From IMG/VR virus record IMGVR_UViG_3300045988_098681: DNA of 64,000 nucleotides, one strand, 5' to 3'. How positions within the stretch are numbered: position 1 is the first letter of the stretch; each line of letters begins with the position of its first letter. Positions 3,006 to 58,337 of the stretch are shown in pieces. This stretch comes from a virus. The translations under genes were made by a program, and so were the position numbers. The notes under the pieces are model-generated. The model did not search any database, was not told the DNA's origin, and worked only from the letters and a program-made list of their open reading frames with translations.

Positions 3006-3547
3006 CAAGCGAACAATCAAAATTTGCAGAAGAAAATATTCGCCTCATGTATCGCTATTTCAACATGCACAACATTACAAACGAGGACGATAAAGCAGAC
3101 TTGTTTGAATACTATTGTAAAGTAATTGAATGTTACGATGATAAAAAAGGAAAATTCAGCACCCTGCTCTATTTTTCCCTTGACAGATATCGTAGACATA
3201 TTTATAATTATAAGTATAATAAGTGTAGATTTTCTGATAAGCCGAGTATATCTTTAGACTCAACTTATGATGACGAAAACGATTGGCTACAAGAGCTAGT
3301 TTGTGAAAGGGACGTTGATATTGAGTTTGTGGAGTTCTTGGATATTTGTGAGCGTGTTTATGATAAACTTGCAACTAAGAAAAATAGTTACAATCGAAAA
3401 CTCGAAGATAGAGAACTCTTTACAATGCTCTTGGCAGGCTACACGAGAAAGGAGATTGGCAATATGTATAATATCTCACAACAAGCATTGTCTGTGAGGA
3501 TTAACAAAATTAAAGCAATTTTTTATAAGGAAATGGAGGAATGTTGA
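3002..3547 (+). CDS. sigma-70 family factor, paralog of the preceding gene
   Basis: 'ENIRLMYRYFNMH...KGKFSTLLYFSL' plus 'LLAGYTRKEIGNMYNISQQALSVRINKIK'. Same architecture as 2406-3005. The start is 2993 or 3002. Confidence 0.65.
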   Translation: MTSEQSKFAEENIRLMYRYFNMHNITNEDDKADLFEYYCKVIECYDDKKGKFSTLLYFSLDRYRRHIYNYKYNKCRFSDKPSISLDSTYDDENDWLQELVCERDVDIEFVEFLDICERVYDKLATKKNSYNRKLEDRELFTMLLAGYTRKEIGNMYNISQQALSVRINKIKAIFYKEMEEC

Positions 3548-4852
3548 TGAGAGTAGAAGAATGGCTTGGCGAAGATAATAAGATTGGGTTAGATATTTGG
3601 CACAAAAAGTATCAACATGGCAATGAGACATTCGATGAATGGCTTGATAGAGTAAGTGGAGGTGATAATGACCTAAGAGAACTCATTAAAAGTAAAAAGT
3701 TCTTATTTGGTGGCAGAGTGCTTGCGAATCGAGGTGTGCCAGATAGTGGGAATTTTTATAATTGCTTTTCTGCCGGATATGTAAAAGACGATTATGCAAG
3801 TATTATGGACGTATTAAAAGAAGTTGGTATTACGTTCAAGTATCAAGGTGGTCAAGGAATCTCCATGTCGAAACTTCGTCCAAAAGGAACAAAAATTGGC
3901 GATAATTATGAGTCAGATGGTATTGTTCCTTTTATTGAAATGTTCAATTCTGTCACTAAAGGTACTTCGCAAGGCGGTGCAAGAAAAGGTGCTTTGATGA
4001 TTAGCTTAGACATCAATCACAAAGAAGCCGAAACATTCATCAAGCTAAAAACTGATCTTGACGCTGTAACAAAAGCGAATCTCTCTATGGAAATAGACGA
4101 TGAGTTTATGACTGCGGTGCAAGAGTTCTACTATGATGGGACAATAAAAACATTACATAAGAGATACAACTACAATGGGCATGTTGTGGAATATGATATT
4201 ACGCCGATTGAATTGTATAAATTGATGATGGAAGTTGTATGGGACTACGGGGAGCCGGGGTGTATCTTTGTAGACGAATTTAGGAACAACAACTTTTTAG
4301 AGCTTGATAACGAGTATCAAATAGAAACTTGCAATCCATGCGGAGAACAACCATTAAAAGCTCGTACAAGCTGCTTGCTTGGCTCATTAAACTTATACGA
4401 GTTTGTTGAAAACAAGTTTACAAGTGATGTGTATTTTAACTTTGAGGAATTTGCAAAAGCTATTAAAGTAGCCTCAAATGCACTTGATAACATCATCGAA
4501 GAAAATGCTCCAAGGCTTCCTAAAGAACTGGAGCAATACAAACAAAACGCTTATGATTGGCGTAATATGGGGCTTGGTGTATTCAACTATGCACACATGC
4601 TCATGGCTATGGGGCTTAAATACGGTAGCGAAGAAGCGTTGGCTTTTACTGATACGCTATTTTACACTATGATGATAGAAGCCATTATATCAAATGACGA
4701 AAGGGGCAAAGAAAAGGGTAATTATCCAAAGTTCAAAGGCGGGTTAGTACAAAAGTCCACGATGTTTAGAAACCATGCCCCCGAAGAACTTTTACAAAAC
4801 GGTGCGCTACATGCTAGAAATTGCACGTTGTTATCTATCGCGCCAACTGGAT
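3547..4852 (+). CDS. nrdJ: class II (B12-dependent) ribonucleotide reductase, exon 1
   Basis: GGAGGA RBS at 3535-3540. RNR active-site motif 'CNPCGEQPL'. The ORF breaks right after 'LLSIAPTG', with a stop 3 codons later. Confidence 0.8.
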
Positions 4853-5155
4853 TAACACAATAGGTTCAGTATAAACTATTTTAATTGCTGGAAACCCCTT
4901 AGAGCTACTTAAACTACAACGTAGGTATGAAATAAAACCAAGCGTGAATGTCTGAAAATTAAGTAGATTGGGCAATCAGCAGCTAAGACTCGAATAGAGT
5001 AAAGTTCAACGACTATCCCGCAAGGGAGTACACAATAAGCAAGAAATGATTGTGGAAAAGGATAGATACTATTTATAGTATAAGATATAGTCTATTCTTA
5101 TAGGAAACTATAAGCAGTTATATAACGGCAAATGTCTTGCGAACATTTGTGAATG
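4853..5155 (+). ncRNA. group I self-splicing intron (ORF-less, ~303 nt)
   Basis: R-like core 'GTTCAACGACTAT' at 4994-5006 and S-like core 'AAGATATAGTC' at 5082-5092. A 7-bp P1 pairs exon ACTGGAT (4846-4852) with GTTCAGT (4864-4870), with U.G at the splice site. The intron ends on G5155 and the exons join in frame. Confidence 0.8.
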
Positions 5156-6171
5156 TAAAAACTATTGCAACGATGGTAAATGGCGCAGGAGGGGTTGAGC
5201 CTGAGTTTGCCTTATCCTACACTCGTAGAACAGACAATTTAGATGAATCCTACAAGATTGAGTCAAACATCGTAAAAGAATATCGTATAATCACAGGCAA
5301 CACAGGCGAGCTACCAGACTATTTTGTATCAAGCGCAGACATCCATTGGAGAGACAGAGTAAAAACGCAATCTGTCATTCAAAAACATATTGATACAGCA
5401 ATTAGCTCAACTGTCAACTTACCAAAGGAAACTACCAAAGAAGAAATCGAGGAACTATACTTATACGCTTGGATTTGTGGGTTAAAAGGAATTACAATCT
5501 TTAGAGATGGGTGCAAAAGACTTGGCATTCTCACAACACAAGAAGATGAAGCTACGCAAAGTGAAAAGCCTAAATCAGAACTCACTCGTGGAACCATTCT
5601 TTCTGTTTCCGACGACTTGATTGGCGCAAAAAGAAAATTGAATACAGGCTGTGGGTCTTTGCATTTTGAGGTATATTTTGATGAAGTGACAGGCGAACCA
5701 CTTGAAACCTTTGTAAACGTAGGCTCTAGTGGTGGATGTGAGAAAAACTTACAATTCATTTCTCGACTCATCTCACTTGCCCTTAGAGCAGGTGTATCAA
5801 TCGAGGATATTATCGACCAATGCAAGTCAATTAAACCTTGCCCTGCATATGTATCTAGGACTAATAAAAAACACGATACAAGCAAGGGATCAAGTTGTCC
5901 TAGTGCCATTGGATATGCGTTAGAGGATTTGTATGACAAAATCAAAGAACGATGCTTTGCGGATTTTGATTTAGAAGATGGTTATGTTGAACCATTGACA
6001 ATCAGTTCACCTGCAATCAAAGAATCAGATAAGGTTGTAAAAACAGGTGCAGATGGTCAAATGATTATTAAAAACTCTGATTGTATATGTCCTGAATGTG
6101 GAGAACCTTTAGTATTTGAGGGTGGTTGTAACCAATGCAAGGCTTGTGGTTTGTATAGTAATTGCGATTAA
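5156..6171 (+). CDS. nrdJ: class II ribonucleotide reductase, exon 2
   Basis: Continues '..(L)KTIATMVNGAGGVEPEFALSYTRR..'. C-terminal CxxC...CxxC zinc ribbon 'CPECGEPLVFEGGCNQCKACG'. Confidence 0.8.
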
Positions 6172-6396: not shown

Positions 6397-6976
6397 AGGT
6401 TCGTGGAGCGAGGTCTTAAATGACTCTCGCTTCACCGTATCCAAACCACCACTTGACAAAAAGCCAAGCGAAAAGTTCAAAAAATCTATCATCACAGCCG
6501 AACATTCGCCAATTCGCGACTTAATCGTGCGTGTAGATTTGGAGGATATTCCAACATGGGTTGCAACACACCTTGTTCGCCATAAGTGGGAAAAATTCGT
6601 ACAAACACAACGTACAGATCGCACAGGTGTGGATAGACATACTCTACCCCAAGACGCTCCTGTGTCTATGCGATGTGAACTTAACGCTCAACACCTTATC
6701 GACACAAGCAGGAAACGTTTGTGTTTTCAAGCTAGTAAAGAAACTAGGGAACTTTGGGAAGAATTTAAGTATGAACTACACAAGGTTGAGCCTATTCTTG
6801 CCGATATGATGGTTCCAAATTGCGTTTATCGATGCGGTTGCCCAGAGTTAAGTTGTTGTGGAATGGTAGAAAAGTGGTTACCGTTTACTAAAATTGACTT
6901 GACAAATATTCAAGAACGGTATAAAATGTATAACGAATGGTTGTATAATAAGTGGAAAGAAAAAAGGGGAGAGTAA
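6371..6976 (+). CDS. ThyX-like (flavin-dependent thymidylate synthase fold) protein
   Basis: AAGGAG RBS at 6355-6360. 'AEHSPIRDLIVRVDLEDIPTWVATHLVRHKWEKFVQTQRTDR' and 'LNAQHLIDTSRKRLCFQAS' align by eye to the ThyX core blocks. The RHR..S motif is deviant (RHK...Q). Confidence 0.5.
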   Translation: MRVTNIQIKGSWSEVLNDSRFTVSKPPLDKKPSEKFKKSIITAEHSPIRDLIVRVDLEDIPTWVATHLVRHKWEKFVQTQRTDRTGVDRHTLPQDAPVSMRCELNAQHLIDTSRKRLCFQASKETRELWEEFKYELHKVEPILADMMVPNCVYRCGCPELSCCGMVEKWLPFTKIDLTNIQERYKMYNEWLYNKWKEKRGE

Positions 6977-7423
6977 ATGGGAAAATATATGGATAATGCA
7001 AAGTTATTACATGATTACCTTAAATCGATACAAGTTGGAAAGGGGAATAAGATGAAAGATAAAATTATTTACACTAAACCATTAGAAAAAACAGAATATG
7101 GAGGCACTTTATCGCCATTTTATATAAATAATACATATGGAACATTGGGCAATAAAGTATATATTGAAAAAGTCCTCTACAACAATCCTGCCACAATCGT
7201 ATTTTGGAGCGATGGAACACAAACGCGCAACATCTGCCCAAAAGAAACACTCTACAACCCAGACACAGGGCTTGCATTTTGTGTCCTTAAAAAGTTCATG
7301 GGTGGCGATGAGATGGCTAAGTTGTTCAATGATTGGGAACTCAAAGACTATCGTAGAGATAAAGGTAATTGGGTTGAGCTAAAAGATGTAAGAAAAGCGC
7401 ATAAAAAAGAAAATAATGCTTGA
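6977..7423 (+). CDS. hypothetical protein
   Basis: 148-aa ORF. Its ATG abuts the preceding stop (TAAATG). Confidence 0.5.
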   Translation: MGKYMDNAKLLHDYLKSIQVGKGNKMKDKIIYTKPLEKTEYGGTLSPFYINNTYGTLGNKVYIEKVLYNNPATIVFWSDGTQTRNICPKETLYNPDTGLAFCVLKKFMGGDEMAKLFNDWELKDYRRDKGNWVELKDVRKAHKKENNA

Positions 7424-22264: not shown

Positions 22265-23210
22265 TTAACCCCGAACAATAGCAAGATTTTGTAATTGTCT
22301 TACAAAGTCTTTTGCGTTGTCGGATTGTACGGTAAGATTTTGAATTGTAATGGAGTGGTCGTTTGTAATCACAGACGATTGCGCACCCATTAGATTCTTT
22401 GGATTGATTCTACCCCAATCCATAAGGTTTTTCGTTAAGTCAGCAGGAATAATGCCTGTTCCCTTCTTTAGAAAATCATAGTTTCCCGTAGGAGGAATCA
22501 TAAGCTCGTCACCAAGCTCGTTGACATTATAAACACCTGTCTTTGGAAGAGAAAGCGAACCCGAAGCCTTCTTGCCTGCTTTTTTAAGTGGGTCAGCAGT
22601 GCCAGCTTTAACTTTTTTCTTTGAGGTCTTGGTACTAGAAGCTCTATAATGTAAATTACCTTGTGCATCGTACCAAACTTCTACCTCGTATCCCTCAGCA
22701 CGTCTTTGGTCGATATTGGCTTGAACTGCACGATTACGGATTTCTTGTGCCGACATGGTTTCTTGGTAATAGTAGGTTGCATCTGTTGTTTTTGTAGATG
22801 CAGGTTTCCATTCCGGAACGACCATGTTGTTTGCATTATTGAGGGCTGAATTTGCTAAATCAAGCTCCTTTTGAGCTGCATTAACAGCTTGGATTGCCGC
22901 AATAACCTCTTGTGTCCCACTAATGTACGAGTTCTTCCAATTTGTAAAGTTTTGTGTTCGACCTTGGAATATGGCTTGTTCAATAGTCATGCCAAGTTCC
23001 GCTTCAATGTTGTAGCGGTTAAGAGCCTTTGTTTGCTCATCAATTACATCTTGGTATGCTTTCTTTTCATCTTCTTTTTTCTTAATTAAATCCTCAAGAG
23101 CCTTAATTTGTTCTTGAATTGCTTGCTTTTCTTTTTCGCGCTTTCGAGCAGTATCAAAATCATCGAGTGCGGTTTGAGCATCCTTTACTTTTTTAGGGTC
23201 AGCAGTCCAT
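22265..23210 (-). CDS. tail tape measure protein, exon 2
   Basis: The reading frame is open upstream of the annotated ATG as far as 23209 ('WTADPKKVKDAQTALDDFDTARKREKEKQ...'). It joins in frame to exon 1. Confidence 0.7.
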
Positions 23211-24606
23211 CAGTCTGTTACTTTTATGACCTATAAAAATAGGCGAGCTGGCATTTCTACCAACTTCTCACATTTCATTATTTGATTATAGTGTGAGTTC
23301 GGACTATATATTAAATCTGTCTAAACAGATTAACAACTTCAATATATATGTTACCATATATATCCTGTAGTCTCTACGGATTTTAAATGTTAATAAAAAA
23401 GTTCTGATAAAATATTTTTTATATTTTTATACTCCCAATAAGGTATTTCAATAAATCTGATATTATGTTTTCTACAATATTCTCTTTTAATGTTATCTCT
23501 AATTTGTCCATTTTTAAAATTTTGTAAAGCCTCTTCTTTTGATGAGCCAAATGTTACAACCTCATAATGTTGTTGCCCCATATATTCAATTACACAATTA
23601 TACTCTGGGAGATAAAAGTCATATTCTAGTGAGTTAATATATTTACATTTATCAAGGACACATTGTTCTATATATTCTATCCCCATCTCATCTAAAAATT
23701 TAGAAACTTCTCGTTCGCCAATAGTAGCATAGCATTTTGGACATTTTCTACCTACCAACATTTTGTTTGGAATCATCTCAAATTCCTTATGGCAAATATT
23801 ACATTTACATAAAATAGGAGTAGAATTATTAATATATTCACCTAAAATCTCATAACTTTTATCTCTTCTTGCATCGTTTATCAAATCTTCTTTAGTAAAA
23901 TTCAATAAATGACAACTACACTTATTCCTCTTTGCCATTAACCTCAAAGATTGCAACATGCAAGATTGAACCCCTTTATTCTTGTGCCTTTTACAAATAT
24001 AAGAAACCCTACTTTTTCTTCTTTGATTTTTTCTATCAATACCTACATAAATCAATCCCGCATTGTCGCACAAATTATTTAATTCATTTACATTAAAAGG
24101 TTTCAATAAATTTTCATCTTCTCTCATTGCATTATATCTACATTCGTTATTGCAATATATTTTATCATATAACTTATATCTTGCCAATGAAATTCTTATA
24201 GAATTACCACAATATGAACATTTCGTAGAAATAGACTTATTGGTTATGTTTAAAAAATTATCTAAAAGAAATATAATATCATCTAAATTTTTATTGCTGT
24301 CATTTAAAACAATTTCATTCAAACATTTCTTTTGATATAATAATTGATACAATAAATCATCTAATTCGCCTATATGCCAATTAGTTTCCAATAAAACTTT
24401 TTCTACCTCTTCTTTTCTTCTATAATAAAAACTATATATCTTACAATTTTTATCTATTTTATATGGACATACAAAACACTCATATCCACAATATTGTAAC
24501 TTTTTCATAACATTTAATCTTTCCTCGGTCTACACTATCTCTAGTCTTTAACCGATATAGTTGTTTTATTCGATATATGTCTCCATATAAAGGGGCATGT
24601 TAGTCT
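23211..24606 (-). ncRNA. group I intron carrying an endonuclease ORF (~1.4 kb)
   Basis: On the - strand: P1 GGGU|AGACUAACAU GCCC, an R-like 'GGTTAAAGACTAGAG' (~24540-24553), an S-like 'TAATATATAGTCC' (23301-23313), and a final G at 23211. The ORF sits between the R and S elements. Confidence 0.7.
23390..24508 (-). CDS. intron-encoded putative homing endonuclease (zinc ribbons + Vsr/DUF559-like PD-(D/E)xK-type domain)
   Basis: 372 aa. Multiple CxxC pairs. C-terminal 'LEYDFYLPEYNCVIEYMGQQHY...RDNIKREYC' resembles the 'DF.LP...IE.DG.QH...D..K' nuclease signature. Confidence 0.5.
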   Translation of the reverse strand: MKKLQYCGYECFVCPYKIDKNCKIYSFYYRRKEEVEKVLLETNWHIGELDDLLYQLLYQKKCLNEIVLNDSNKNLDDIIFLLDNFLNITNKSISTKCSYCGNSIRISLARYKLYDKIYCNNECRYNAMREDENLLKPFNVNELNNLCDNAGLIYVGIDRKNQRRKSRVSYICKRHKNKGVQSCMLQSLRLMAKRNKCSCHLLNFTKEDLINDARRDKSYEILGEYINNSTPILCKCNICHKEFEMIPNKMLVGRKCPKCYATIGEREVSKFLDEMGIEYIEQCVLDKCKYINSLEYDFYLPEYNCVIEYMGQQHYEVVTFGSSKEEALQNFKNGQIRDNIKREYCRKHNIRFIEIPYWEYKNIKNILSELFY

Positions 24607-27600
24607 ACCCATCCTAAACTGCTGTCATATACCCTAACCGTCTTTTGCTTCTTGGCTTCTTCAAGTGCATTAACCAACTTAATACGTTCAGCCTGTTTAT
24701 CAAGAGCTTCATTTTGCTCGTCCATAAGGTCAAGTTGTTCGTTAAGTTTTGCAATTTGCTCATTATAGCCATCTATCGTTTTGTCGATAATTTCTGTTTG
24801 CTCGTCTGCATAGAATTGCAAGGCTGATATAAACGCATTGGCTCTATCTTGTCTCTTTTGAGCTTCTTCTAACTTCTTTTGAGCTGCTTCGACTGCGGCT
24901 TCGGCGGCTTCAATCGCCGCTTGTTTAAGAGCCTTGGCAACCTCGTTCTTTGCTGCATAAGCTGCATCTACAAGTGCATTACGAGTCACCTTAACCATTG
25001 ACTTGTCTAATGCACCCGACTTAACAGATTGTCTTATAGATTTTTCGGACTTCTTTTGAGCTTCGTCTACCTTCTTTTGGTATTGCTCGGCTGTTAGTTG
25101 TCCGCTTTCATATTGCTTTTTAAGATTATCAAAGAGAGCAGTGTAGCCCTTTTTAATATAATCTCGATAGCTATCAAAGTCTATTTTACCATTCTTATAG
25201 AACTTTTTAGCGTATTTCCAAAGCTCATTATAATACTTTTCGCCATCAATTTGCCCCTCTTTATAACGATATTCAATCTCGCTAAAGATGTCCTTAACAG
25301 CGGTCGTATTATATTGCTTATATGTGTCAAGCATGGATTTTGCGTCACTTGCATAATCCGAACCCATTTTCTTGAGCTTGTCGTAGTAAGATTTGCCGCG
25401 CTTTTGCACATTAGAATAATATTCAGATGCGCTTATTTCACCCTTTTGATATGCGTCCTTTTGAGCCTTTTGGTATTCCTCAAGACGTTTCTTATAGATG
25501 GAGAGGTAATCTTTCTTTTCTTTTTTACCTTTACCATCTCCGCCATCTCCGCCACCACTAACACCTTTACTATAAACCTTAATTTTACTAAGTTCAGCAA
25601 TCACCTTTTGAGATGTTGCAATTACATTCTCCCATTTATCTTTAGATTGACTTGCGACATCTTCTGCTAAGGCATCTGGGGATTTTAGCTTTGTCTTTGA
25701 GAACATATCGCTAGATACATTCTTCATCAGCTTATTTGTGGTAGGCGCAGAAACCGACATAACTTTGGCAAGTTGTTCTCTAGCTTTTATCTCATTTTCT
25801 GTTTGAGCGATTATGGATTCTGCCTCTGCAATGATTGCTTTTTGTGTTGCAATCGCAGAATCTTTTGCGGCTTGTGATACAAAATAGTATGTATCTCCAA
25901 CCTCTACAAGTTGATTCTTATAAACCTCATAAATGCTTTGTGACGATGAATAAACTCCATTTAATTTTCCAGTAGCATCACGAAGTTTTTCAACTTTACT
26001 TTTCGCTCCGTCAAGAGTGCCTTTTGCGCCATCATAAGCACCCATAAGAAGTTTAAGTTTATCATAATTTTCTTTTTGTGAGTTTGTAAGTTCCCCACCA
26101 GAGTCTATGATATTTTGAAGAGCATTATAATATTCTACAAGCGAATCAATATTCCCAACCTTATCTAAGAAATCTTGAGCCGATATTGCCCCAAGATTAT
26201 ATTGGCTAGTAACTTCTTTGAGAAGTTTTAGTTTGGTATCTAAAGCCTCTTGACCTGTTACATCTTTATAACGTGTCCCTTGTTCGCCTTCATATGCCTT
26301 TTTTGCCTCTATTAAATTTAAGTAAGCATTGGCAACCTTACCTAAATCATCAGATGTTTTAGCAATGTGTTGGTTGCGAAGCTCTTTAAACTTGCCAGTT
26401 AAAACACCGACCGCAACACCTAAGCCGAGGAATACCGCAGCATATGGTGCGATAGAAGCAAGCATTGGAATTAAAGATGCTAGAACAGGAGACAAACGAC
26501 CTAGTGCTTTTGCAAGCCCTAAAGTTTTTACTATATCATGTATGGTAGCAATTATAATAGGGAGGTCTTTAAGTATCTTTTTAGCTGCTCCAAGCACACT
26601 AACAATTTTCTTTACTACCGATAGAAATTCTTTAGCAGAGCCGATTGCACCTGTAAATAAGCTACCTGCAATTTTGAACCCCTTGATTATAAGAAGGGCT
26701 TTGGCTATTTTTGTGATTGTGCTAATAGCTTGTTCGTTTTCGGCTAAAGAACGAAGCGCAGAATTAACTTTGTCTAATAAATCTCCAATAGCTTCTGAAT
26801 TTGCAAAAGCTAAAACTAATTCAGCCCAAGAATCTTTAATTGCTTTAATCTTCTTGTTAAGATTCTCCATCGCACGAGCATTTTCATCAAGTGCAGAACC
26901 CGAAGAATTGAGGGCAATATCGTGTGCTTTAAGAACTGTATCAAAGTTTTGGAGAATGGCTGATAAATTCTGTGTCTGATTTGCGCCTGCTTGTATGTTA
27001 AGATAGTAAAGTTGTTCGTCTTTACTTAATTGATTCCAAATTTTCGATACATCTGCAAGTGTATCATATAATTTACGTTGATTGCCTTCTTGGTCTTTAA
27101 TAGCAATATTATGTTCTTTGTACCATTTAACAAGTTTCTGACCTGTAGAAGATGTTTCATCAATAGTTTGATTGTAGCGGCTTTGCACGCTTACAAGCGC
27201 ACGAGAAACTTTTGCACCAGAACGTGTAATCTCCACCCCTGCCGTCATTAAGGAGAGTACATCTTCGTATGTATTCCCACCGACAGCTAATGCAGCAGAT
27301 GCTTTTCCAATATTTGTTGCGAGGTCGGCGGAACTTACGGCTGTACGATTTGATACCTCGTTTATTGCATCTATGATGTGCATAGCATCATCAGCTGTCA
27401 TATTAAATGCCTTCATTTGGCTAATAATAAAATTAGCCGCTTCGCCAGCATTAAGTTCTTCGTCCGCGATGTTTTGGTAAAGCGACGCCACTCTTGCTAA
27501 CGTTGCAGATTCCTCTTCACCAAAACCAGATTTTACAAATTCCGTAGCGGCATCTACCATTTGCGCCCTTGATTTTCCGACCTCTTGACCCATCTTGCCA

Positions 27601-28037
27601 AGTTTTTCAGTATATTCGTCAAGAGACTCACCAGACAAATCTGAAACCTTCTTTAGTTCAGTTAAAGAATCTTCAAACTCTAACAATGGTTGTATCGCTT
27701 GACCAAAGTTTACAACTACGTTCTTTACCGCTTGAAATACACCATTTATAGACTGCAACTTTCGACCCATGGACTCAAAGTTTTCACCTAAAGTCTGTGC
27801 TCCACTTGCAGTCCTTGTAAACGTTGTGCTAAGAGTATTCCCCTCACTATCCAATTTTTTCATCTCAAGATAAGCGTTACCTGCCGTATCTTTAAGCTTT
27901 GAAAATTCTTGAGTTATCTTAGGAATCCCATTTGCATCAAATGTTATCTTTTGTGTTTTGCTGACTTCTCTAAGCTGTTTTTTTATGTCATTGACATCAA
28001 CTTGCGCCTTTATATTAAGCTTGAAATCATCAGCCAT
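24607..28037 (-). CDS. tail tape measure protein, exon 1
   Basis: 1145-aa, mostly helical A/K/E/Q-rich ORF with a central hydrophobic segment. Longest tail gene. Stop lies 2 codons after the proposed splice site. Confidence 0.75.
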
Positions 28038-28061: not shown

Positions 28062-28682
28062 TTATCTTTTTAGTTCTTCTATAATATCCGAAAAGCCCAC
28101 TTCGTTATATTTATACTCGTCATAAATCACACTCGCTACAATGTTAATTGCATCTGCAATATCATCATCGTTTTGTTTAGAGCCAAAACTTTTCCACTCT
28201 AAATCAATGCCAAAAGCACGATTGACTAGGTCAATACTCATTTTTTTCTCATAAGCCTTAGTCTTACCTTTGAGCTTTTCTAAGTCCTTTTTATTCCACT
28301 TTAAGTCCTTTTTCGCTTGATTGTATTCTTTACTATGTGTTAGGTTGATATTTACTTTGTTCTTCCATGTTTCAACAGGAATAAATTCAACATCAACACC
28401 GAACACACCCATAACACCAAGCACAATCCCTTGCAAAGCACCAAGCGTTTTAACTGTTTGAGAATTGTTGATAATTGGTGGTACATCTTCAATATACACT
28501 TTATCAATATGGTTTTCTCGCATAATCTCGCCTAGTTTGCCTGCCATATATGTAATCCTATTACGCCAATCTTTTTCTTGTGTGCTAAGTATCTCAATAC
28601 ACCCATAGTCCACAAGCTCTTTGTCACAAAAGATTGCGTAACCAGTTTTTTGGGTAGACATATCCAACCCTAAAATCTTCAT
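28062..28682 (-). CDS. RuvC-like Holliday junction resolvase
   Basis: 'MKILGLDMSTQKTGYAIF', 'KVYIEDV' and 'DDIADAINIV' match the RuvC catalytic D/E/D/D blocks. Confidence 0.7.
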   Translation of the reverse strand: MKILGLDMSTQKTGYAIFCDKELVDYGCIEILSTQEKDWRNRITYMAGKLGEIMRENHIDKVYIEDVPPIINNSQTVKTLGALQGIVLGVMGVFGVDVEFIPVETWKNKVNINLTHSKEYNQAKKDLKWNKKDLEKLKGKTKAYEKKMSIDLVNRAFGIDLEWKSFGSKQNDDDIADAINIVASVIYDEYKYNEVGFSDIIEELKR

Positions 28683-28703
28683 CCTTTTTATTCCTTTCGT
28701 ACC

Positions 28704-29225
28704 TTAAAAAGAGAACGCAAAGCCAACTTTACTTACGTCAAGTCCTGCGCTTATACATTCTCGTTGAAAAATGTTTGTTAAATTTTCATTACACCACTTC
28801 TCGAACTCATCCCAAAATGGTCTTGCCTCGATTGCAGGAAAGTTAATATGGGACTCTGATATACCACTATTGATGATATTATCAAGTTCATTGATTGTTA
28901 AGGCTCTACCTTCGACAACTGAACCATGACTAAATGGTTGATGCCAAGTTAGGGGGAGCATTTGCATAATTGACGCTTCAACAGCACTTCCTCTTAGACC
29001 TCTTACCATCTTTGCTTTTGTCTTACCCCATGTATCGTAAAACTCATGCGTCCTGCCGAACTCGCCACCATAGCCATTCGTCCAAGTCGCATTATAAGAA
29101 TACACAGTATGTTCAATAATATCTAGCAATTTATTCAAGGCAACTTCTGTCGTGCTATCTATTGCAATTTTTAACTTATCATATATAGCCGATTTTAGTT
29201 CGGTGGTACTATTTATCGTTTCCAT
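28704..29225 (-). CDS. hypothetical protein
   Basis: 173-aa ORF overlapping the upstream gene. Confidence 0.5.
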   Translation of the reverse strand: METINSTTELKSAIYDKLKIAIDSTTEVALNKLLDIIEHTVYSYNATWTNGYGGEFGRTHEFYDTWGKTKAKMVRGLRGSAVEASIMQMLPLTWHQPFSHGSVVEGRALTINELDNIINSGISESHINFPAIEARPFWDEFEKWCNENLTNIFQRECISAGLDVSKVGFAFSF

Positions 29226-29655
29226 CTTCTTGTTTCTCGCTTTGATTTAAAAACTTCTCAGCAAGTTCAGTTAATTTTGATTCTGTTGGCATAGCTTTTG
29301 CAAGGTTATCAAGTTCATTTGTCATTTTATCGCAAAGTCTAGTAAGTGCAAAATCCATAGATTCATAAACATGAACTTTTTCTTTGATTTCAATAACATA
29401 ATCGTAAACAAGACTCAAAATATCATTCCACAAGCCACTTGTTACAACTGTATCGTAATCAACTTCTTCGTCCTCTGCAATATCGGTACAAGCCGCTAAT
29501 ACACCAAATAAAAGCACAACTTGTCTATTAAATAAATCGTCCTCGGCAAGCATAAGCTCACAAATTTTCTTTTCCTGCTCGATTGTTAAATATGGTGTAA
29601 CATTAATGTCAAACTTTTCCAAGTAAACATTCTCAGGTCTTTTTAATCCTTTCAT
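29209..29655 (-). CDS. hypothetical acidic protein (tail assembly chaperone position)
   Basis: 148 aa, acidic. ATGA overlap with the MazF-like gene. Lies upstream of the tape measure gene. Confidence 0.45.
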   Translation of the reverse strand: MKGLKRPENVYLEKFDINVTPYLTIEQEKKICELMLAEDDLFNRQVVLLFGVLAACTDIAEDEEVDYDTVVTSGLWNDILSLVYDYVIEIKEKVHVYESMDFALTRLCDKMTNELDNLAKAMPTESKLTELAEKFLNQSEKQEDGNDK

Positions 29656-30020
29656 TCCTTTTCCTCCATCTTGAAATTCTTTAGAAATGCCTCTAAAATA
29701 AACCCCTTATCCATTTCTTTTACCATGCCAAGATACTTTTGTACTTGAAGAGCAACATCTATTGTCACAACTTGCTCACAAAGTATCGTATTTTCTTCGT
29801 AATCAAAAAATGGATAGTCGGACTTTTTCAAAATATAATGGGTCGGCATTTTAGATTTGGTTTGGCTACTTGTAATTGGCACACATATCGTTGTAGTGCT
29901 ACAAGCATTACCTATTGCATTTTGCAATATAAGACAAGGGCGAACCCCATTTTGAACAGAACCGCCCTTGTCCCCCAAATCTACAATATATATCCCCCAT
30001 TGATTTACGAACTTTCTCAT
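29652..30020 (-). CDS. MazF/PemK (EndoA-like) endoribonuclease toxin
   Basis: 'WGIYIVDLGDKGGSVQNGVRPCLILQNAIGN..STTTICVPITSS..KSKMPTHYIL..ENTILCEQVVTID' aligns block by block with B. subtilis EndoA/MazF. ATG 30020 lies 1 nt after the upstream stop. Confidence 0.8.
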   Translation of the reverse strand: MRKFVNQWGIYIVDLGDKGGSVQNGVRPCLILQNAIGNACSTTTICVPITSSQTKSKMPTHYILKKSDYPFFDYEENTILCEQVVTIDVALQVQKYLGMVKEMDKGFILEAFLKNFKMEEKE

Positions 30021-30021
30021 G

Positions 30022-30339
30022 TTAAATAATTTGTAAAAGCGACCCCACAACTGCTCCACCTATACCCGAAACTGCACAAGTAATAAGTGTTTTCTTTGCA
30101 TTGTTCCAAGCCTCAACAGGTTGCATCTCTAAGGCGCGGATTCTTCCATCTTCTCTTTCTTGGGTGTCCGCTAATCTTCTTTGTTCGTGAGTCATTTGTT
30201 CCATATTAGCTGCCATAACTTCAACGGAAGTTGCCAAACGATTTACATTTTCGCCAAGCTCTTCTAGCTTATCCATTCTGTACGTGAGACTTTTTATATC
30301 TTTTTTTAATCCTTGTACGGTAACTTCCATGCTCTCCAT
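30022..30339 (-). CDS. XhlA-like protein (coiled coil + C-terminal TM)
   Basis: 105 aa. Heptad-rich N-terminus and a C-terminal 'LITCAVSGIGGAVVGSLLQII' TM segment. Confidence 0.4.
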   Translation of the reverse strand: MESMEVTVQGLKKDIKSLTYRMDKLEELGENVNRLATSVEVMAANMEQMTHEQRRLADTQEREDGRIRALEMQPVEAWNNAKKTLITCAVSGIGGAVVGSLLQII

Positions 30340-50239: not shown

Positions 50240-50314
50240 TGGCATACCTACTACGAATCGAACATAGATATACGGTTTTGGAGACCGCTGTTTTCCCAAT
50301 TAAACTATAGGCAC
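50240..50314 (-). tRNA. tRNA-Trp: tRNA-Trp (anticodon CCA), CCA-encoded
   Basis: Cloverleaf folded by eye: acceptor GTGCCTA/TAGGTAT, D stem GTTT/AAAC, anticodon stem GCGGT/ACCGT with loop CTCCAAA, T arm CTATG-TTCGATT-CGTAG. Confidence 0.75.
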
Positions 50315-50377
50315 ATATCAGATGAGTTAAGTTTCTCTAACTCACCAAGTACGCATCCGAAAACACATACCCCAATT

Positions 50378-50740
50378 TTAAAATAATTCTTGTTCAGTTA
50401 TTCCAATATTTTCTTCTGTATATGGTAAAAACAAATGACCAAATCTACCACGCACTTCTCCATTATCTTTTGGAAATCTTAAAAAATGTTTGTAATCTGT
50501 TAATAGCTTAGGACAATTTTTTTCTACCCACTGTTTAGTTGCAGTAATACAATAATCCGAAGACGTATCTACAAAATTAAATACTACAAATACTACACAT
50601 AATTTATTTTCTTTTACCCAATCTTCATTGTCAAATGGAATTTTTAAATTGTCTTCAAACCATGTGATAAAAGGTTCATCATCAGGAAAATCTCTTTCTA
50701 AAAACCAATTATTTAATTCAAAATAAATTATATTTTCCAT
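50378..50740 (-). CDS. hypothetical protein
   Basis: 120-aa ORF between tRNA genes. Confidence 0.5.
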   Translation of the reverse strand: MENIIYFELNNWFLERDFPDDEPFITWFEDNLKIPFDNEDWVKENKLCVVFVVFNFVDTSSDYCITATKQWVEKNCPKLLTDYKHFLRFPKDNGEVRGRFGHLFLPYTEENIGITEQELF

Positions 50741-50770
50741 TACACCGTCCTAAACTTTCTATAAATTTAA

Positions 50771-50847
50771 TGGTGATGCCACCGAGGCTCGAACTCGGAC
50801 TTTTCAGCTTGAAAGGCTGATGTGTTAACCAGTTACACTATGGCACC
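50771..50847 (-). tRNA. tRNA-Glu: tRNA-Glu (anticodon UUC), CCA-encoded
   Basis: Acceptor GGTGCCA/TGGCATC, anticodon stem TCAGC/GCTGA with loop CTTTCAA, T arm CCGAG-TTCGAGC-CTCGG. Confidence 0.8.
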
Positions 50848-50925
50848 ATACGAAGAAAGTATAATAGATAATTTCTAAAATTTGTATTAAATCCCACAAT
50901 AAGAAATTATCAAACATAAAGGGAT

Positions 50926-51002
50926 TGGCGGGACATCTAGGATTCGAACCTAGAATCTTGCGGTTAACAGCCGCCTGCTCTAACCAGCTGAGCTAATGTC
51001 CC
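50926..51002 (-). tRNA. tRNA-Asn: tRNA-Asn (anticodon GUU), CCA-encoded
   Basis: Acceptor GGGACAT/ATGTCCC, D arm GCTC-AGCTGGTTA-GAGC, anticodon loop CTGTTAA, T arm CTAGG-TTCGAAT-CCTAG. Confidence 0.85.
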
Positions 51003-51300
51003 ATATGGATGCAGGTACTCGACACTCCCCTTAGCTAAATCAAAGGATTTTAGGTGGCGATAGTTCAATAACTTATTTGCCTAACATGTGCAAACAAGTT
51101 TATTCATGCTCAGCCACCTAGAACTTTCATTAAGAAAAATTGTTGGAAACGACAGGACTCGACGTTACGTTCAACTAAAAAAAGTTGATTCCTTATTCAT
51201 CGTGCTCTGTTTTGCCGAAGCTATTCCAGTTGGTATAGCACTCCAAAGGCTTAAATTCCCATGTAGCGATTTGGTACATATATGTAGTCACTTCTAGTTG
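51003..51300 (-). ncRNA. putative TnpB omega RNA (reRNA) / transposon right-end region
   Basis: ORF-free 3' flank of tnpB. Nested stems TAGGTGGC/GCCACCTA (51051-51058/51113-51120) and CTTATTTGC/GCAAACAAG (51072-51080/51090-51098). The single non-Watson-Crick pair is A-C on the + strand and G-U on the - strand. Confidence 0.4.
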
Positions 51301-52425: not shown

Positions 52426-53530
52426 TTACCTCCTTTTCTTTAAGATTTTATGAAAAGGAGAGTGGCGGGAACTTACCCCGCACATGCGTTTCTCTCTTGT
52501 TGAATATATGAGCGAGACTTTGGGAACCGTTTTTACCTATCGACATCAGCATAGTGGTATTCAACGTTATCGAGTATGCTCCCGCCTTGCCATCTTCCAA
52601 TGACTGAAAATCTCGCAGAAATCTTAAGTTATTTTACTAAGCTAAACAACTAAATAACATGTGCCATGAACCTTCGTTCTACCTTCCACAATCATCGTCA
52701 TATTCAACCAGTAAGTAGACAAGTCTGTGCCACAGGGAGCTACCCTATGACATCTTGCCTAGATGGAAACCATCAAATCTTACAAGGGGCTCTTTCTACC
52801 CTTAACTTTCACAAAGCATTCAGAATTATTTTCTTCAAATCTTCATCATTTGACATCATTTGACTTGTAAAATTACTACAGTCATTGCTTTTTGCTACTC
52901 GTACCTTGACCCTATCTTATACTTTGTCTTTCGACAATCTCACAGCAAACTTCCTTAGTGGCACTTCCGTACTTATGCCGCTTGCCACAGCGACACAGCC
53001 CTCGGATTCGGCTTACGCTTTTAACGCTTAGCTTCTATTGTGGAAGCGATAGGACAGTGTTTTTAACAAGGATTGCTTTAGCACACACCCCCAGAACCAT
53101 TCTATTCATAAGTGGCATCTTGCATCTCACAATGCAAGCCTTTGACCGTTACCAAAGCTATCGTTTTGGCTAGGCTATTCTTACCCGCAGGTGGGTAGTG
53201 TTCTCTGCACCATGCTCTTGGTCTACACAGAGTTATGGCACACATTATTTAGTTGTCTAAAAATGGCTACGGGATTGAGTACCGCCCTCAACAATAGTCG
53301 GGTCAAAGCCGACTGCGTTCACTTGTTCGCCATCCCGCAATATTTGGTTGGTATACGATTGAAACCATATACCAACCGTAAGGAAAAAAATATGAAAAAA
53401 GCGTTTTTCTTTTTTATTGTGGCGCACCAAATAAATTTTATGGATGTCCTTTTAGGAGGTAAAACACAAAAAACAGAAAGGTTGGTTTTAGGTGCGCCAC
53501 TCGAATATTTTGTTGTTTTCTCTCTTTACA
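52426..53530 (-). ncRNA. candidate large structured non-coding RNA (class unassigned)
   Basis: ~1.1 kb downstream of a perfect consensus promoter with no ORF >=60 aa on the transcribed strand. Many stems: 53419-53428/53491-53500 (10 bp), 53346-53355/53368-53377 (10 bp), 53296-53301/53309-53314, 53119-53125/53132-53138, 52958-52963/52983-52988, and GTC-GAAA-GAC at 52926-52935 (GNRA only on the - strand). Confidence 0.35.
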
Positions 53531-56117: not shown

Positions 56118-56381
56118 CTCTGGCTCTTTATCCAGAGCTTCTTTAAGTTTCCTTAAAGTATCGGACTATATCTTCACCATGCACTTTCGTGTTTAGGTGT
56201 TCAGCACTCGTGGGGGGATTATTGCTAGTTCTGCTCACCCCCTAGTCTCTGAGCCTTCCTATCTACTAAATGAACCTCGATAGGTTTGGCATATGGTTAG
56301 CATATGCTTTTGCACTTAGCTTTCCACTATTCACTGAATATTTTTTACTAAATGTTTCCACTTAGCTGACCCATTTTACTA
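56118..56381 (-). ncRNA. group I self-splicing intron (ORF-less, ~264 nt; boundaries approximate)
   Basis: On the - strand: an R-like 'GGCTCAGAGACTAG' (56242-56255), an S-like 'AAGATATAGTCC' (56163-56174), then a CTTTAAG-GAAA-CTTAAAG hairpin (P9-like) and a GCTCT..AGAGC hairpin before the proposed 3' splice site. Confidence 0.7.
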
Positions 56382-58337
56382 AGCCACTACACTCAGAATA
56401 CACACATAATCATCATACTCTTTGTCTGTAAAACTATATCCATAAGTCAACGCAAGCTGCGCAAGATTACTAGACTCACCTATTGCCATTTGTGCTTTGG
56501 CAAGGTTGTTGTCTATAACGGCGTGATTGTACATGGATAAGTCATAATGATTTTTTTCTTTTGGAATGTTGTTTACAATGGTTGGATGGTTTATGTAGCA
56601 ATATTTGGCGTAGTCGGCAATGTCATGTTGATTTGTTACAAATACTTGGTCAGAATCCCAGTCGCAGCCATTTAGTCGGTCTTGGACATCTGTGTGTTTG
56701 CAATTCATTGCAATACATTGCTCCCCAATATAAAAATATTTATCTAAAATATCGCTCTTAATATTTTTAAGTCCAATAATATTCGACTTACTATTGTGCG
56801 GGCTTCTAAATCCTGCTAAATACTCGTTTGCTCCAAACCTCTTTGTGTAACATTGAATACAATCCTGCTCTTGACCAAACGTATTGTCTTTTTCTACATC
56901 TTCACCCACACTATGTAATAACATGGCATAAGGAGAGCCAACCATTACTAAGTTATCACCCTCTTGCAACACTTTACCAAACTTTAGATTTTTTACATAA
57001 CCATCAATTATTTTTTTCTTCCTGCTCCTAAAATACTCACTTCGCACAAATTCTGAATCCTGCTCGCACAATGCGACCAAAACCTCGTAGTCATTAGAAA
57101 AGTTCTCATTGTCTCTAAGGTAGTCAAGGAACACATCATTGTCACTCTTTAGTTGTTCAACATACGATTTGCTTCTTGCAAGCACACCATCCATAATTTC
57201 AACATCAAGTGTGTTTATCATTTGGTAACTCATACGTTGAACGTCACCGTATTTGCTCTTGTGTGCAGTTTTAACTATTCCAAATTGACAATCATTCTCA
57301 TGGACTTTCTTACACCAATAGTCATACGATACGTCGAATTTTAACCACTTCATGGAATTATCTGTGGTTATCATCTTGATATCTTTTACATAGTGTTCAT
57401 TGCCCCACATATCGACAACTTTTGCACTTTTGTACTCATCGCCATACCAATCCCTAAAGAACCGTTGTATGTTCGTGTGAAAAGCAGCACACTTTGTCAT
57501 ATGATGTCTTAGTAATACATACCCCTCTCCCCACTTGGGAAAAATCGAATCGTCTATCAAGGCTTGCCCATCGAACAAGGTGTTTTTTAATTCGTAGTCT
57601 TGTATTCGCTTTGCATAACAATGTTTTTTTCCATCAATGCCAATACTCACTACTTCACGCCTAAAAAAACTATCCACATCTTTTAGTATCAATATATTTT
57701 CCGGCTCAATCCTCATGCGTCCAACTATCGTGCTTGCGATGAGTGACACATATGCACTTGCTTCTACTATCGGCGCATTATGCTTTGGAATCTTTAACCC
57801 CATATAAATAAAGTCGTGGGCTTTTTTATAGAGCCTAGAACAAATAAACATAACAGAACCTTGCTTCGCCTTGCCAGCAGAACGATAAAGCATTTTATAG
57901 TGTATTGTTTCTGTTTTCTTTATATTTCCTGCTTTGTCTTTGGTATGATATTTAATATTTATTCCATGTTCGTAATATTCAATTCGTATATCTTCTTTTC
58001 GCTTCTTGACGTACTTATCTCTATTTTCGTCTACTTTATTTAGTAAAAATTCTAATCTCTTTATTTTCTCCTCATCGTCAATTTCTTTTATCTTATTTAC
58101 AATGTTGCCCCTCGTGTCCTCATAACTCTTAGCTCCCATGTCAAAATTCAAGCATATTACATCTCTAGTGAAACCGTTCTTCGACACTTTAAGTCCATTT
58201 TCTAACAAGAAGTCTAAGAAGAGGCTATTTGTCAACATGGCATTAGTATATGGCAGATAATCTCTTGCGCCAAGATTATATTCATATAGTTGTCCTGCCG
58301 AAAAGTTCTTTATTCGTACACCATATTTATTCGTCAT
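56382..58337 (-). CDS. YonO/RdRP-like two-barrel RNA polymerase candidate, exon 1
   Basis: 'GFRSPHNSKSN...(~40 aa)...LNGCDWDSDQVFV' matches the 'RSP.H...GGD.DGD' spacing of the catalytic double-psi beta-barrel in QDE-1/YonO-type polymerases. The ATG at 58337 is preferred over the GTG at 58349. Confidence 0.5.

Follow-up and report, generated by a model that had tools for sequence, protein, structure and literature searches.

A probable mobile group I intron with a Vsr-fold endonuclease gene in the tape measure gene of an uncultured gut phage

Introduction

The viral DNA stretch IMGVR_UViG_3300045988_098681 from IMG/VR (64,000 nucleotides, in the following called the window) contains on its minus strand two adjacent open reading frames (ORFs) of a phage tape measure protein (TMP), which are separated by a third ORF of 372 amino acids. 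This raises the question whether the locus comprises separate genes or one gene, which is interrupted by an intervening sequence. A preliminary description, made from the sequence alone, had assumed that a group I intron of 1.4 kb, which carries an endonuclease gene, splits a TMP gene. This is supported by the comparative and structural evidence described here. The segment 24606..23211 (-) is, with a probability of roughly 90%, a mobile group I intron of a subgroup-IA-like type in the TMP gene of an uncultured gut phage.

The insertion and the tape measure gene

The locus is divided as follows.

28037..24607, minus strand: TMP exon 1, codons 1-1143 and the GU of Val1144
24606..23211, minus strand: putative group I intron, 1396 nt, consisting of 281 nt ribozyme and a 1115-nt P6a loop with the ORF
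24508..23390, minus strand: putative homing endonuclease ORF of 372 aa with zinc-ribbon (CapR/DUF4379-like) modules, followed at the C-terminus by a Vsr-fold nuclease of the EDxHD type
23210..22265, minus strand: TMP exon 2, final base of Val1144 and 314 codons

The upstream TMP ORF extends over 28037..24600 (-) and encodes 1145 aa with the C-terminus ...SSLGWVD*, as the unspliced reading of exon 1 runs into a stop at 24600-24602. Exon 1 comprises a PhageMin_Tail domain (PF10145, 4.7e-23 in Pfam) and matches tape measure PHROGs (phrog_4211, TMP, 1e-50). Downstream of the insert the frame 23209..22265 (-), which starts with WTADPKK, is open over 314 codons. The first 73 codons of exon 2 do not contain a start codon, yet they are conserved in two related phage contigs, L001 and L135.

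L001 (MT837813), a human-gut phage contig found by megablast against phage records, is devoid of the insert and defines its borders. Window positions 25970..24607 align to L001 1497..2860 with 93% identity and positions 23209..22265 to L001 2862..3806 with 97.8% identity. The additional DNA of the window is 24606..23211 (-) with a boundary ambiguity of 1 nt (an A on either side), which is resolved by the group I rule of a U before the intron and a G at the intron end. Joining after U24607 and after G23211 results in the in-frame reading ...SSLGWV|WTADPKK... and a spliced TMP of 1458 aa, for which the predicted ligated junction is ...GGAUGGGU|AUGGACUG... and the predicted peptide across it ...SSLGWVWTADPK.... 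The DNA of L001 reads ...SSLGWVWTADPKK..., exactly the predicted spliced product, with AGTTTAGGTTGGGTTTGGACTGCTGACCCTAA as the site of the intron-less allele, and encodes a single uninterrupted TMP with the sequence ...VRVYDSSLGWVWTADPKKVKDAQ.... The TMP of L135 (77% aa identity) is also uninterrupted (...TGWVWSEDPKK...). The in-frame joining of the two TMP ORFs, as claimed in the preliminary description, is confirmed, and the boundaries are set independently by the intron-less L001. The flanks have a G+C content of about 0.40, which falls to 0.21-0.30 over 23250-24600.

Relatives and states of the insertion site

Relatives of the insert were reached by several routes. The closest homologs of the endonuclease ORF led to L003 and L004. 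A core DNA pattern revealed 15 loci (L006-L020), a looser pattern L092/L023 as well as L040/L060/L098, and a search with the junction peptide L136/L137. No exact match to the 5' core pattern CGAATAAAACAACTATATCGG was found in the viral contigs, and the TMP junction peptide revealed no relative in genome_contigs.

L003, which originates from an independent sample, contains at the TMP site of the window an intact endonuclease gene with 88% identity within intron DNA of about 84% identity. In L004 (Logan SRR19415655) the endonuclease gene at this site is frameshifted. L136 (3283-3554) and L137 (IMG/VR UViG_3300045988_093528 and _093127) contain an ORF-less intron of 272 nt exactly at the site of the window. 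The site is thus found empty (L001, L135), with an intact endonuclease gene (window, L003), with a frameshifted one (L004) and with an ORF-less intron (L136/L137), and these states agree with the cycle known for such elements, in which invasion is followed by decay of the endonuclease and by loss. ORF-less introns of about 300 nt occupy another TMP site in L006-L020, and L092/L023 likewise contain ORF-less introns.

L040 (~6470-7390, -), L060 and L098 harbor a related intron at the TMP site ..PINKLG|NTMALSNQ.., in which a GIY-YIG-type ORF (MIIYRCLLPNGKSYIGQT...) is located in the P6a loop. Different endonuclease families therefore occupy one slot of one intron lineage. A second group-I-like insert is found in the N-terminal part of the TMP of L004 (1807-2195; ..AATCCGCAGCCAAG..AAGGTTCGACGGTCA..), between fragments of 380 aa and 791 aa.

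The same intron lineage occurs in a cultured phage, the Thomasclavelia phage TR-TP1 (PQ571309) of T. ramosa YY17, in which P9-P9.2 and the core motifs are nearly identical to those of the window. Its endonuclease belongs to the same family with 38.6% aa identity. The intron (L138:3519-5049, record ~28517-30047) interrupts the homologous motif RVY..GW.W of the TMP at a position 11 nt upstream of that in the window (..YEEG|VGWTW..). The locus of TR-TP1 is annotated as three genes, namely TMP, 'HNH endonuclease' and a hypothetical protein. The predicted splice, which would remove 1531 nt, with the ligated junction ...GAGGAGGGU|GUUGGAUGG..., results in one ORF of 1102 aa, which aligns with the window TMP across the junction. 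A second copy of the endonuclease family is located just upstream of the TMP piece of TR-TP1.

Structure of the ribozyme

The proposed structure comprises P1 to P9.2 including the P3/P7 pseudoknot and an extra P7.1, a hairpin between P7 and P3', which we take to be a trait of subgroup IA. Its elements are given in 5' to 3' order.

24610..24593, minus strand: P1, exon GGGU (24610..24607) with guide GCCC (24596..24593), U.G at the splice site
24599..24597, minus strand: possible P10, CAU with AUG of the 3' exon, seen by eye only
24589..24574, minus strand: P2 hairpin UAUAUG-GAGA-CAUAUA, double changes in 4/6 pairs
24565..24559, minus strand: P3 5' strand AACAACU, pairs with 23338..23332
24555..24525, minus strand: P4 (UCGGU/ACCGA) around P5 (ACUA-GAGA-UAGU), P4 invariant, P5 with double changes in 3/4 pairs
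24524..24508, minus strand: P6 (GG) and P6a 5' strand UUAAAUGUUA, pairs with 23392..23378, ends in the A of the ORF's AUG
23392..23378, minus strand: P6a 3' strand UAACAUUUAA and CC of P6, includes the ORF stop UAA
23377..23367, minus strand: J6/7 and P7 5' strand GUAGAGACUAC, the true R element, conserved in all relatives
23363..23342, minus strand: P7.1 hairpin with GUAA loop, between P7 and P3', compensatory change G-C to A-U in L004
23338..23332, minus strand: P3 3' strand AGUUGUU, from comparative pair counts and RNAalifold
23331..23314, minus strand: P8 hairpin AAUCUGU-UUAG-ACAGAUU, hairpin kept with a different sequence in each lineage
23313..23301, minus strand: J8/7 and P7 3' strand UUAAUAUAUAGUC(C), the S element, from the comparison and the window's Rfam-called introns
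23297..23267, minus strand: P9, from covariation and folding
23264..23247, minus strand: P9.1 with GAAA loop, from covariation and folding
23243..23230, minus strand: P9.2, from covariation and folding
23211, minus strand: omega-G, the guanosine at the intron end; G also in every complete relative

The complete relatives terminate with ...AACAGAYUG or ...AAUG right before the restored exon frame.

For the comparison the P6a loop was deleted before alignment with MAFFT. The covariation set consisted of seven sequences, representing about five lineages; parts of P8, P9.1 and P9.2 and the P3 strand of L136 were misregistered by MAFFT and were examined by eye. In the proposed structure 93.9% of the cells pair, versus 29-42% if the 3' partners are slid by 1-3 columns. 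Changes on both sides were observed for 37 pairs, and none of 500 column shuffles matched the observed values for pairing, double changes or covariation. All pairs of P1 including the U.G are kept in seven of seven sequences with two compensatory changes, as exon and guide change together from GGGU/GCCC in the window to GGAU/GUCC in L004 and AGGU/GCCU in L092. The loop of P2 is a GNRA tetraloop in the three alleles at the window's site that contain the endonuclease gene (GAGA in the window, GUGA in L003, GCGA in L004). P3 changes from AACAAC/GUUGUU to GAUAAC/GUUAUC in L007, with double changes in three of its six pairs. Compensatory changes in P6a occur in L004, L007, L092, L040 and L136, and double changes are also seen in P6, P6a and P8. 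P7 covaries in L136 at two of six pairs (G-C to A-U and A-U to G-C).

Prediction by RNAalifold from the alignment alone revealed P1, P2, the long-range P3, P4, P5, P6, P6a, P7.1, P8, P9 and P9.1; the P7 pseudoknot cannot be drawn by this program. The minimum free energy (MFE) of the ORF-deleted window intron is -67.7 kcal/mol (z = -5.3), a value reached by 0 of 200 shuffles. The single-sequence MFE fold shows P2-P6a, P7.1, P8 and P9-P9.2, and P3 is recovered. The consensus of the Rfam group I intron model RF00028, aAGACUA ... AGAUAUAGUC, agrees with the R and S motifs of the TMP intron, GUAGAGACUA ... AUAUAGUCC. Within the window the pattern AGACTA-N-ATAGTC occurs only at the TMP intron and at two further introns, which are called by Rfam (see below).

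P6a is a stem of 10 bp (UUAAAUGUUA/UAACAUUUAA), in which the A of the ORF's AUG closes one strand and the stop UAA opens the other. At the position of the ORF the ORF-less relatives (L007 type, L092, L136) contain a short P6a hairpin with a loop of 4-8 nt, and hence the ORF replaces the P6a loop. The preliminary description was right with respect to P1 (GGGU/GCCC) and to an S-like element, which is AUAUAGUCC at 23308..23300. Its placement of the ORF in a P8-type loop between R and S has to be revised, as the functional R lies 3' of the ORF. An upstream AGACUA (~24546..24541) was considered as R element and P7 strand and rejected. It is the 5' arm of the P5 hairpin and covaries as such, with GCCA/UGGU in L004 and yet another sequence in L136. 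Pairing of the AU-rich hairpins P2 and P7.1 with each other in one long interrupted helix was also considered, and was rejected in view of the GNRA loop retained by either hairpin and of their local covariation.

The endonuclease

Pfam matches of the ORF are weak zinc-ribbon matches (CapR with 1e-4 and DUF4379) and also include DUF2726. In PHROGs the ORF is assigned to phrog_559 (5e-46, labelled HNH), phrog_9084 (2e-29, 'homing endonuclease') and phrog_7140 (5e-12, 'intron encoded nuclease'). For most of 104 homologs DUF4379, DUF723 and CapR (PF14311, PF05265, PF21817) are precomputed. A tblastn search identified the endonuclease family in 388 phage records, mostly from Firmicutes phages. In BFVD 192 structural matches at E<=1e-3 could be identified, some of them named homing endonuclease or group I intron protein.

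The residues C259, E265, D297, E308, G311, H314, D338, K341 and Y357 are invariant in 53 aligned homologs. The ORF of the window is intact and keeps all nine of them. An AlphaFold2 (AF2) model reaches means per 10 residues of the predicted local distance difference test (pLDDT) of about 87-98 over residues ~211-372. The best PDB matches of the model in Foldseek are E. coli Vsr (1vsr, template modelling score, TM, 0.60) and the catalytic domain of I-Bth0305I (3r3p_B, TM 0.70), with a probability of 1.00. A profile alignment puts E265, D297, H314 and D338 on E170, D196, H213 and D222 of I-Bth0305I, and M310 aligns to N208. In contrast to the fold search and the domain-only profile, by which the nuclease kinship was recovered, searches of PDB sequences with phmmer and with a full-length profile of the ORF revealed only zinc-ribbon proteins (mS66/DUF4379 chains). 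The zinc ribbons and the Vsr/DUF559-like C-terminal signature, which had been noticed from the sequence, are real according to domain matches, fold and invariant residues, and the structure prediction proposed earlier indeed reveals a Vsr-type nuclease fold.

Several neighboring classes could be distinguished. Instead of the NUMOD or helix-turn-helix modules of the I-Bth0305I subfamily, zinc-ribbon matches are found at the N-terminus, which places the protein in the CapR-like outgroup (PMC12350094). The canonical PD-(D/E)xK triad of the I-Ssp6803I type is absent from the ORF, which contains D297 ... E308-Y-M310 and no Lys at this place; the family consensus at the position of M310 is Q, and the invariant K341 lies in a later helix. 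The nuclease belongs to the Vsr branch of the same broad superfamily as the PD-(D/E)xK enzymes. An HNH family is not among the Pfam matches of the ORF, and the fold matches the Vsr type. Because there is no HNH signal, the 'HNH' label of PHROG 559 and of GenBank looks wrong.

Possible mosaic structure and choice of sites

The intron of the window and that of L136/L137 are 91-95% identical in P1-P2 and from P9 to the 3' end. Only 44-66% identity is found between the window and L136 in the P3-P8 core. J6/7-P8 of the window is 44% identical to L136 and 73% identical to the L007 type from the other TMP site. A tentative and rather doubtful explanation is that the window intron is a chimera, formed by recombination or core replacement between introns, with L136-like outer parts and with a core and an endonuclease gene from introns at other TMP sites. 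If true, a ribozyme core that carries an endonuclease gene would be able to enter an intron already in place and to displace its core, and one intron lineage specialised on TMP genes would hop among at least five sites.

The five TMP insertion sites (L007, L092, L040, L138 and window) all follow GGU, four of them GGGU and one AGGU. These sites match the guide GCCC/GCCU and would fit a spread by reverse splicing. Codon bias (Gly/Val codons) may be an alternative source of the preference.

The spliced sequence TTAGGATGGGT|ATGGACTGCTGACCCTAA (24617-24607 and 23210-23193) contains an imperfect inverted repeat (TTAGGATG ... GACCCTAA), the centre of which lies ~4 nt to the 3' side of the insertion site. 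The recognition sequence of I-Bth0305I is a pseudopalindrome beside its own insertion site, and the inverted repeat of the window likewise adjoins the site. The repeat could be the target of the endonuclease; L135 retains just a part of it, and it may be due to chance.

Other features of the window

Rfam calls two other group I introns, both ORF-less. The one at 4817-5114 (+, 73.5 bits) splits a ribonucleotide-reductase-like ORF (3541-4863 / 5137-6171), the other at 56141-56390 (-, 77.2 bits) splits a large ORF (58349-56379 / 56108-55512). Together with the TMP intron the phage would therefore carry at least three introns. A ROOL RNA (269.5 bits), a RAGATH-18 RNA (63 bits) and three tRNA genes are clustered at 52649-53256, 51189-51249 and 50243-51002, respectively, all on the minus strand. 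RAGATH-18 is also found in the related contig L013 (9658-9719). Directly upstream of the TMP gene an ORF is located at 28062-28682 (-), which starts with MKILGLDMSTQKTGYAIF. Its counterpart in L004 shows a weak RuvC match (PF02075).

Discussion

A mobile group I intron would work at this locus as follows. The late TMP transcript would fold into the ribozyme, and the guide GCCC would pair with the exon end GGGU, with the U.G wobble at 24607. Free guanosine bound in P7 would attack after 24607, the terminal G (23211) would then take the place of the guanosine, and ligation of the exons would give the message for the 1458-aa TMP. The unspliced message would yield only the 1145-aa truncation, and therefore tails should not be formed without splicing. 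DNA binding is presumably the task of the N-terminal zinc-ribbon modules, and the Vsr-fold EDxHD nuclease presumably cuts an intron-less TMP gene near ...GGGT|(A/T/C)TGGA... in a co-infection. In the repair of the cut from the genome with the intron, a copy of the intron would be inserted.

Several points weigh against this interpretation. The splicing is a prediction from the comparison of alleles and the modelled fold; the activity and the target of the endonuclease are likewise predicted from its fold and catalytic residues, and cleavage, cut site and mobility are to be read as putative. The N-terminal ~200 residues of the AF2 model are of low to moderate confidence, the Foldseek E-values for Vsr and I-Bth0305I lie between 3e-3 and 5e-3, the match of the C-terminal domain profile to 3r3p is weak (E=0.14), although its alignment is informative, and the x position of EDxHD is Met in the window protein versus Gln in relatives. 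With respect to the ribozyme, the invariance of P4 makes this helix uninformative, and P8 and P9.2 are imperfectly aligned, with 58-83% of the cells paired in some sub-helices. RF00028 does not match the TMP locus of the window at the gathering score (50 bits) or at E<=10, the ORF-less L007 (2324-2542) reaches 16.4 bits, below the gathering score of 50, and the ORF-less L136 (3150-3700) shows no match.

The silence of Rfam at the locus is attributed to the 1.1-kb ORF, which breaks the model, and to a low sensitivity of the model. As the ORF-less relatives are also below threshold, this silence is not evidence of absence. The sub-threshold alignment of L007 to RF00028 puts P4, P5, P6, P7 and P7' as proposed here. 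We read the failure of RF00028 as a limit of the model for the P7.1-bearing subfamily, since the comparative tests are passed.

Among the other explanations the one that survives best is an intron that splices and is no longer mobile, with an ORF that is a relic or a maturase helper and with vertical descent of the whole. The decay of the endonuclease gene in the lineage, which is frameshifted in L004 and absent from L136/L137, as well as the diverged and poorly modelled N-terminus of the window protein would be in line with it. We nevertheless regard it as unlikely, as the ORF of the window is intact over 372 aa including the E-D-H-D set among its nine invariant residues, and as the intact copy from an independent sample is 88% identical within an intron that is only about 84% identical in DNA.

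A free-standing endonuclease gene between two separately translated TMP fragments, without any splicing, is far less probable. It corresponds to the usual annotation of such loci, exemplified by the separate genes of TR-TP1, and to the missing Rfam call. However, the sequences on either side of the ORF make up a group I fold with covarying helices, in which the exon end pairs with an internal guide, and the exons join in frame with single-nucleotide precision. A start is lacking in the first 73 codons of exon 2, which are nevertheless conserved in L001 and L135, and the ORF-less insert still interrupts the gene, which would be senseless without splicing. Nothing specific favors another kind of insertion, and this possibility is negligible: the insert starts with AGACU and not with GUGYG and has no reverse transcriptase, and Rfam gives no group II match in the window (group II intron), the ORF is out of frame with the TMP gene and bounded by stops and therefore not an intein, Pfam and PHROG scans found no transposase (transposon), and the same insert occurs at the same site in the independent samples L003, L004, L136 and L137 (assembly chimera).

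A mobile group I intron of this layout has a familiar counterpart in the td intron of phage T4, which is of subgroup IA type with extra P7.1-type hairpins, interrupts the thymidylate synthase gene and encodes the GIY-YIG enzyme I-TevI. In td the loop of P6a holds the endonuclease ORF, the start and stop codons of which lie at the stem base. The window has the same layout with the ORF in P6a, whereas enzyme class and host gene differ.

With respect to the enzyme, the closest description is found in 'Presence of group II introns in phage genomes' (NAR 2025), in which CapR/DUF4379/DUF723-like repeats combined with an EDxHD/Vsr-like domain are reported and this CapR-like architecture is called a large unrecognised outgroup of the EDxHD/Vsr family (PMC12350094). 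The members are alike in having several zinc-ribbon modules of ~60 aa followed by a Vsr-like nuclease of ~100 aa, and in being encoded by phage introns. They differ in their hosts, which are group II introns and group I introns of virion RNA polymerase genes in PMC12350094 and a group I intron of a TMP gene in the window. As far as could be traced in the literature, no biochemical test of a member of this outgroup was found. The prototype of EDxHD enzymes, for which the composite motif was defined, is I-Bth0305I from the recA group I intron of Bacillus phage 0305phi8-36 (PDB 3R3P, PMC3239194). It shares with the window protein the Vsr-type catalytic fold, the aligned E-D-x-H-D residues and the location in a phage group I intron. 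Unlike the window protein with its zinc ribbons and its position in P6a, it contains NUMOD/helix-turn-helix N-terminal modules and lies in P5. The endonuclease had been regarded as belonging to an uncommon class, which overstates its rarity in view of the architecture published in 2025 (PMC12350094) and the 388 phage records.

The TMP gene is also a documented target of introns. In prophages of the Bacillus cereus group the TMP introns IVS1-3 occupy three positions (PMC2504315), and the TMP of Vibrio phage ICP1 is spliced and was called a 'frequently interrupted gene' (PMC10448857). By their description these are likewise group I introns, some of them with endonuclease genes, and the endonuclease in the TMP intron of ICP1 is an HNH enzyme, unlike that of the window. 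The earlier statement that introns are less common in tail genes was therefore too strong (PMC2504315, PMC10448857). Intron type, enzyme family, TMP target and the layout with the ORF in P6a have all been described previously.

No concept is changed by the finding; it bears on how such loci are to be read. Two adjacent 'TMP' ORFs together with an 'HNH endonuclease' in gut-phage contigs would represent one spliced gene, and likewise in TR-TP1. The predicted TMP length, and hence the tail length, would have to be corrected to 1458 aa instead of 1145 + 241. RF00028 has a blind spot for a P7.1-bearing subfamily of phage introns, whose members are missed even when they are ORF-less, and the 'HNH' label appears to be wrong for a widespread family of Vsr-type endonucleases. 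The window's site provides a well-resolved example of what would be a full homing cycle at one site, and with TR-TP1 a cultured phage would be available, in which the CapR-like EDxHD outgroup could for the first time be tested biochemically.

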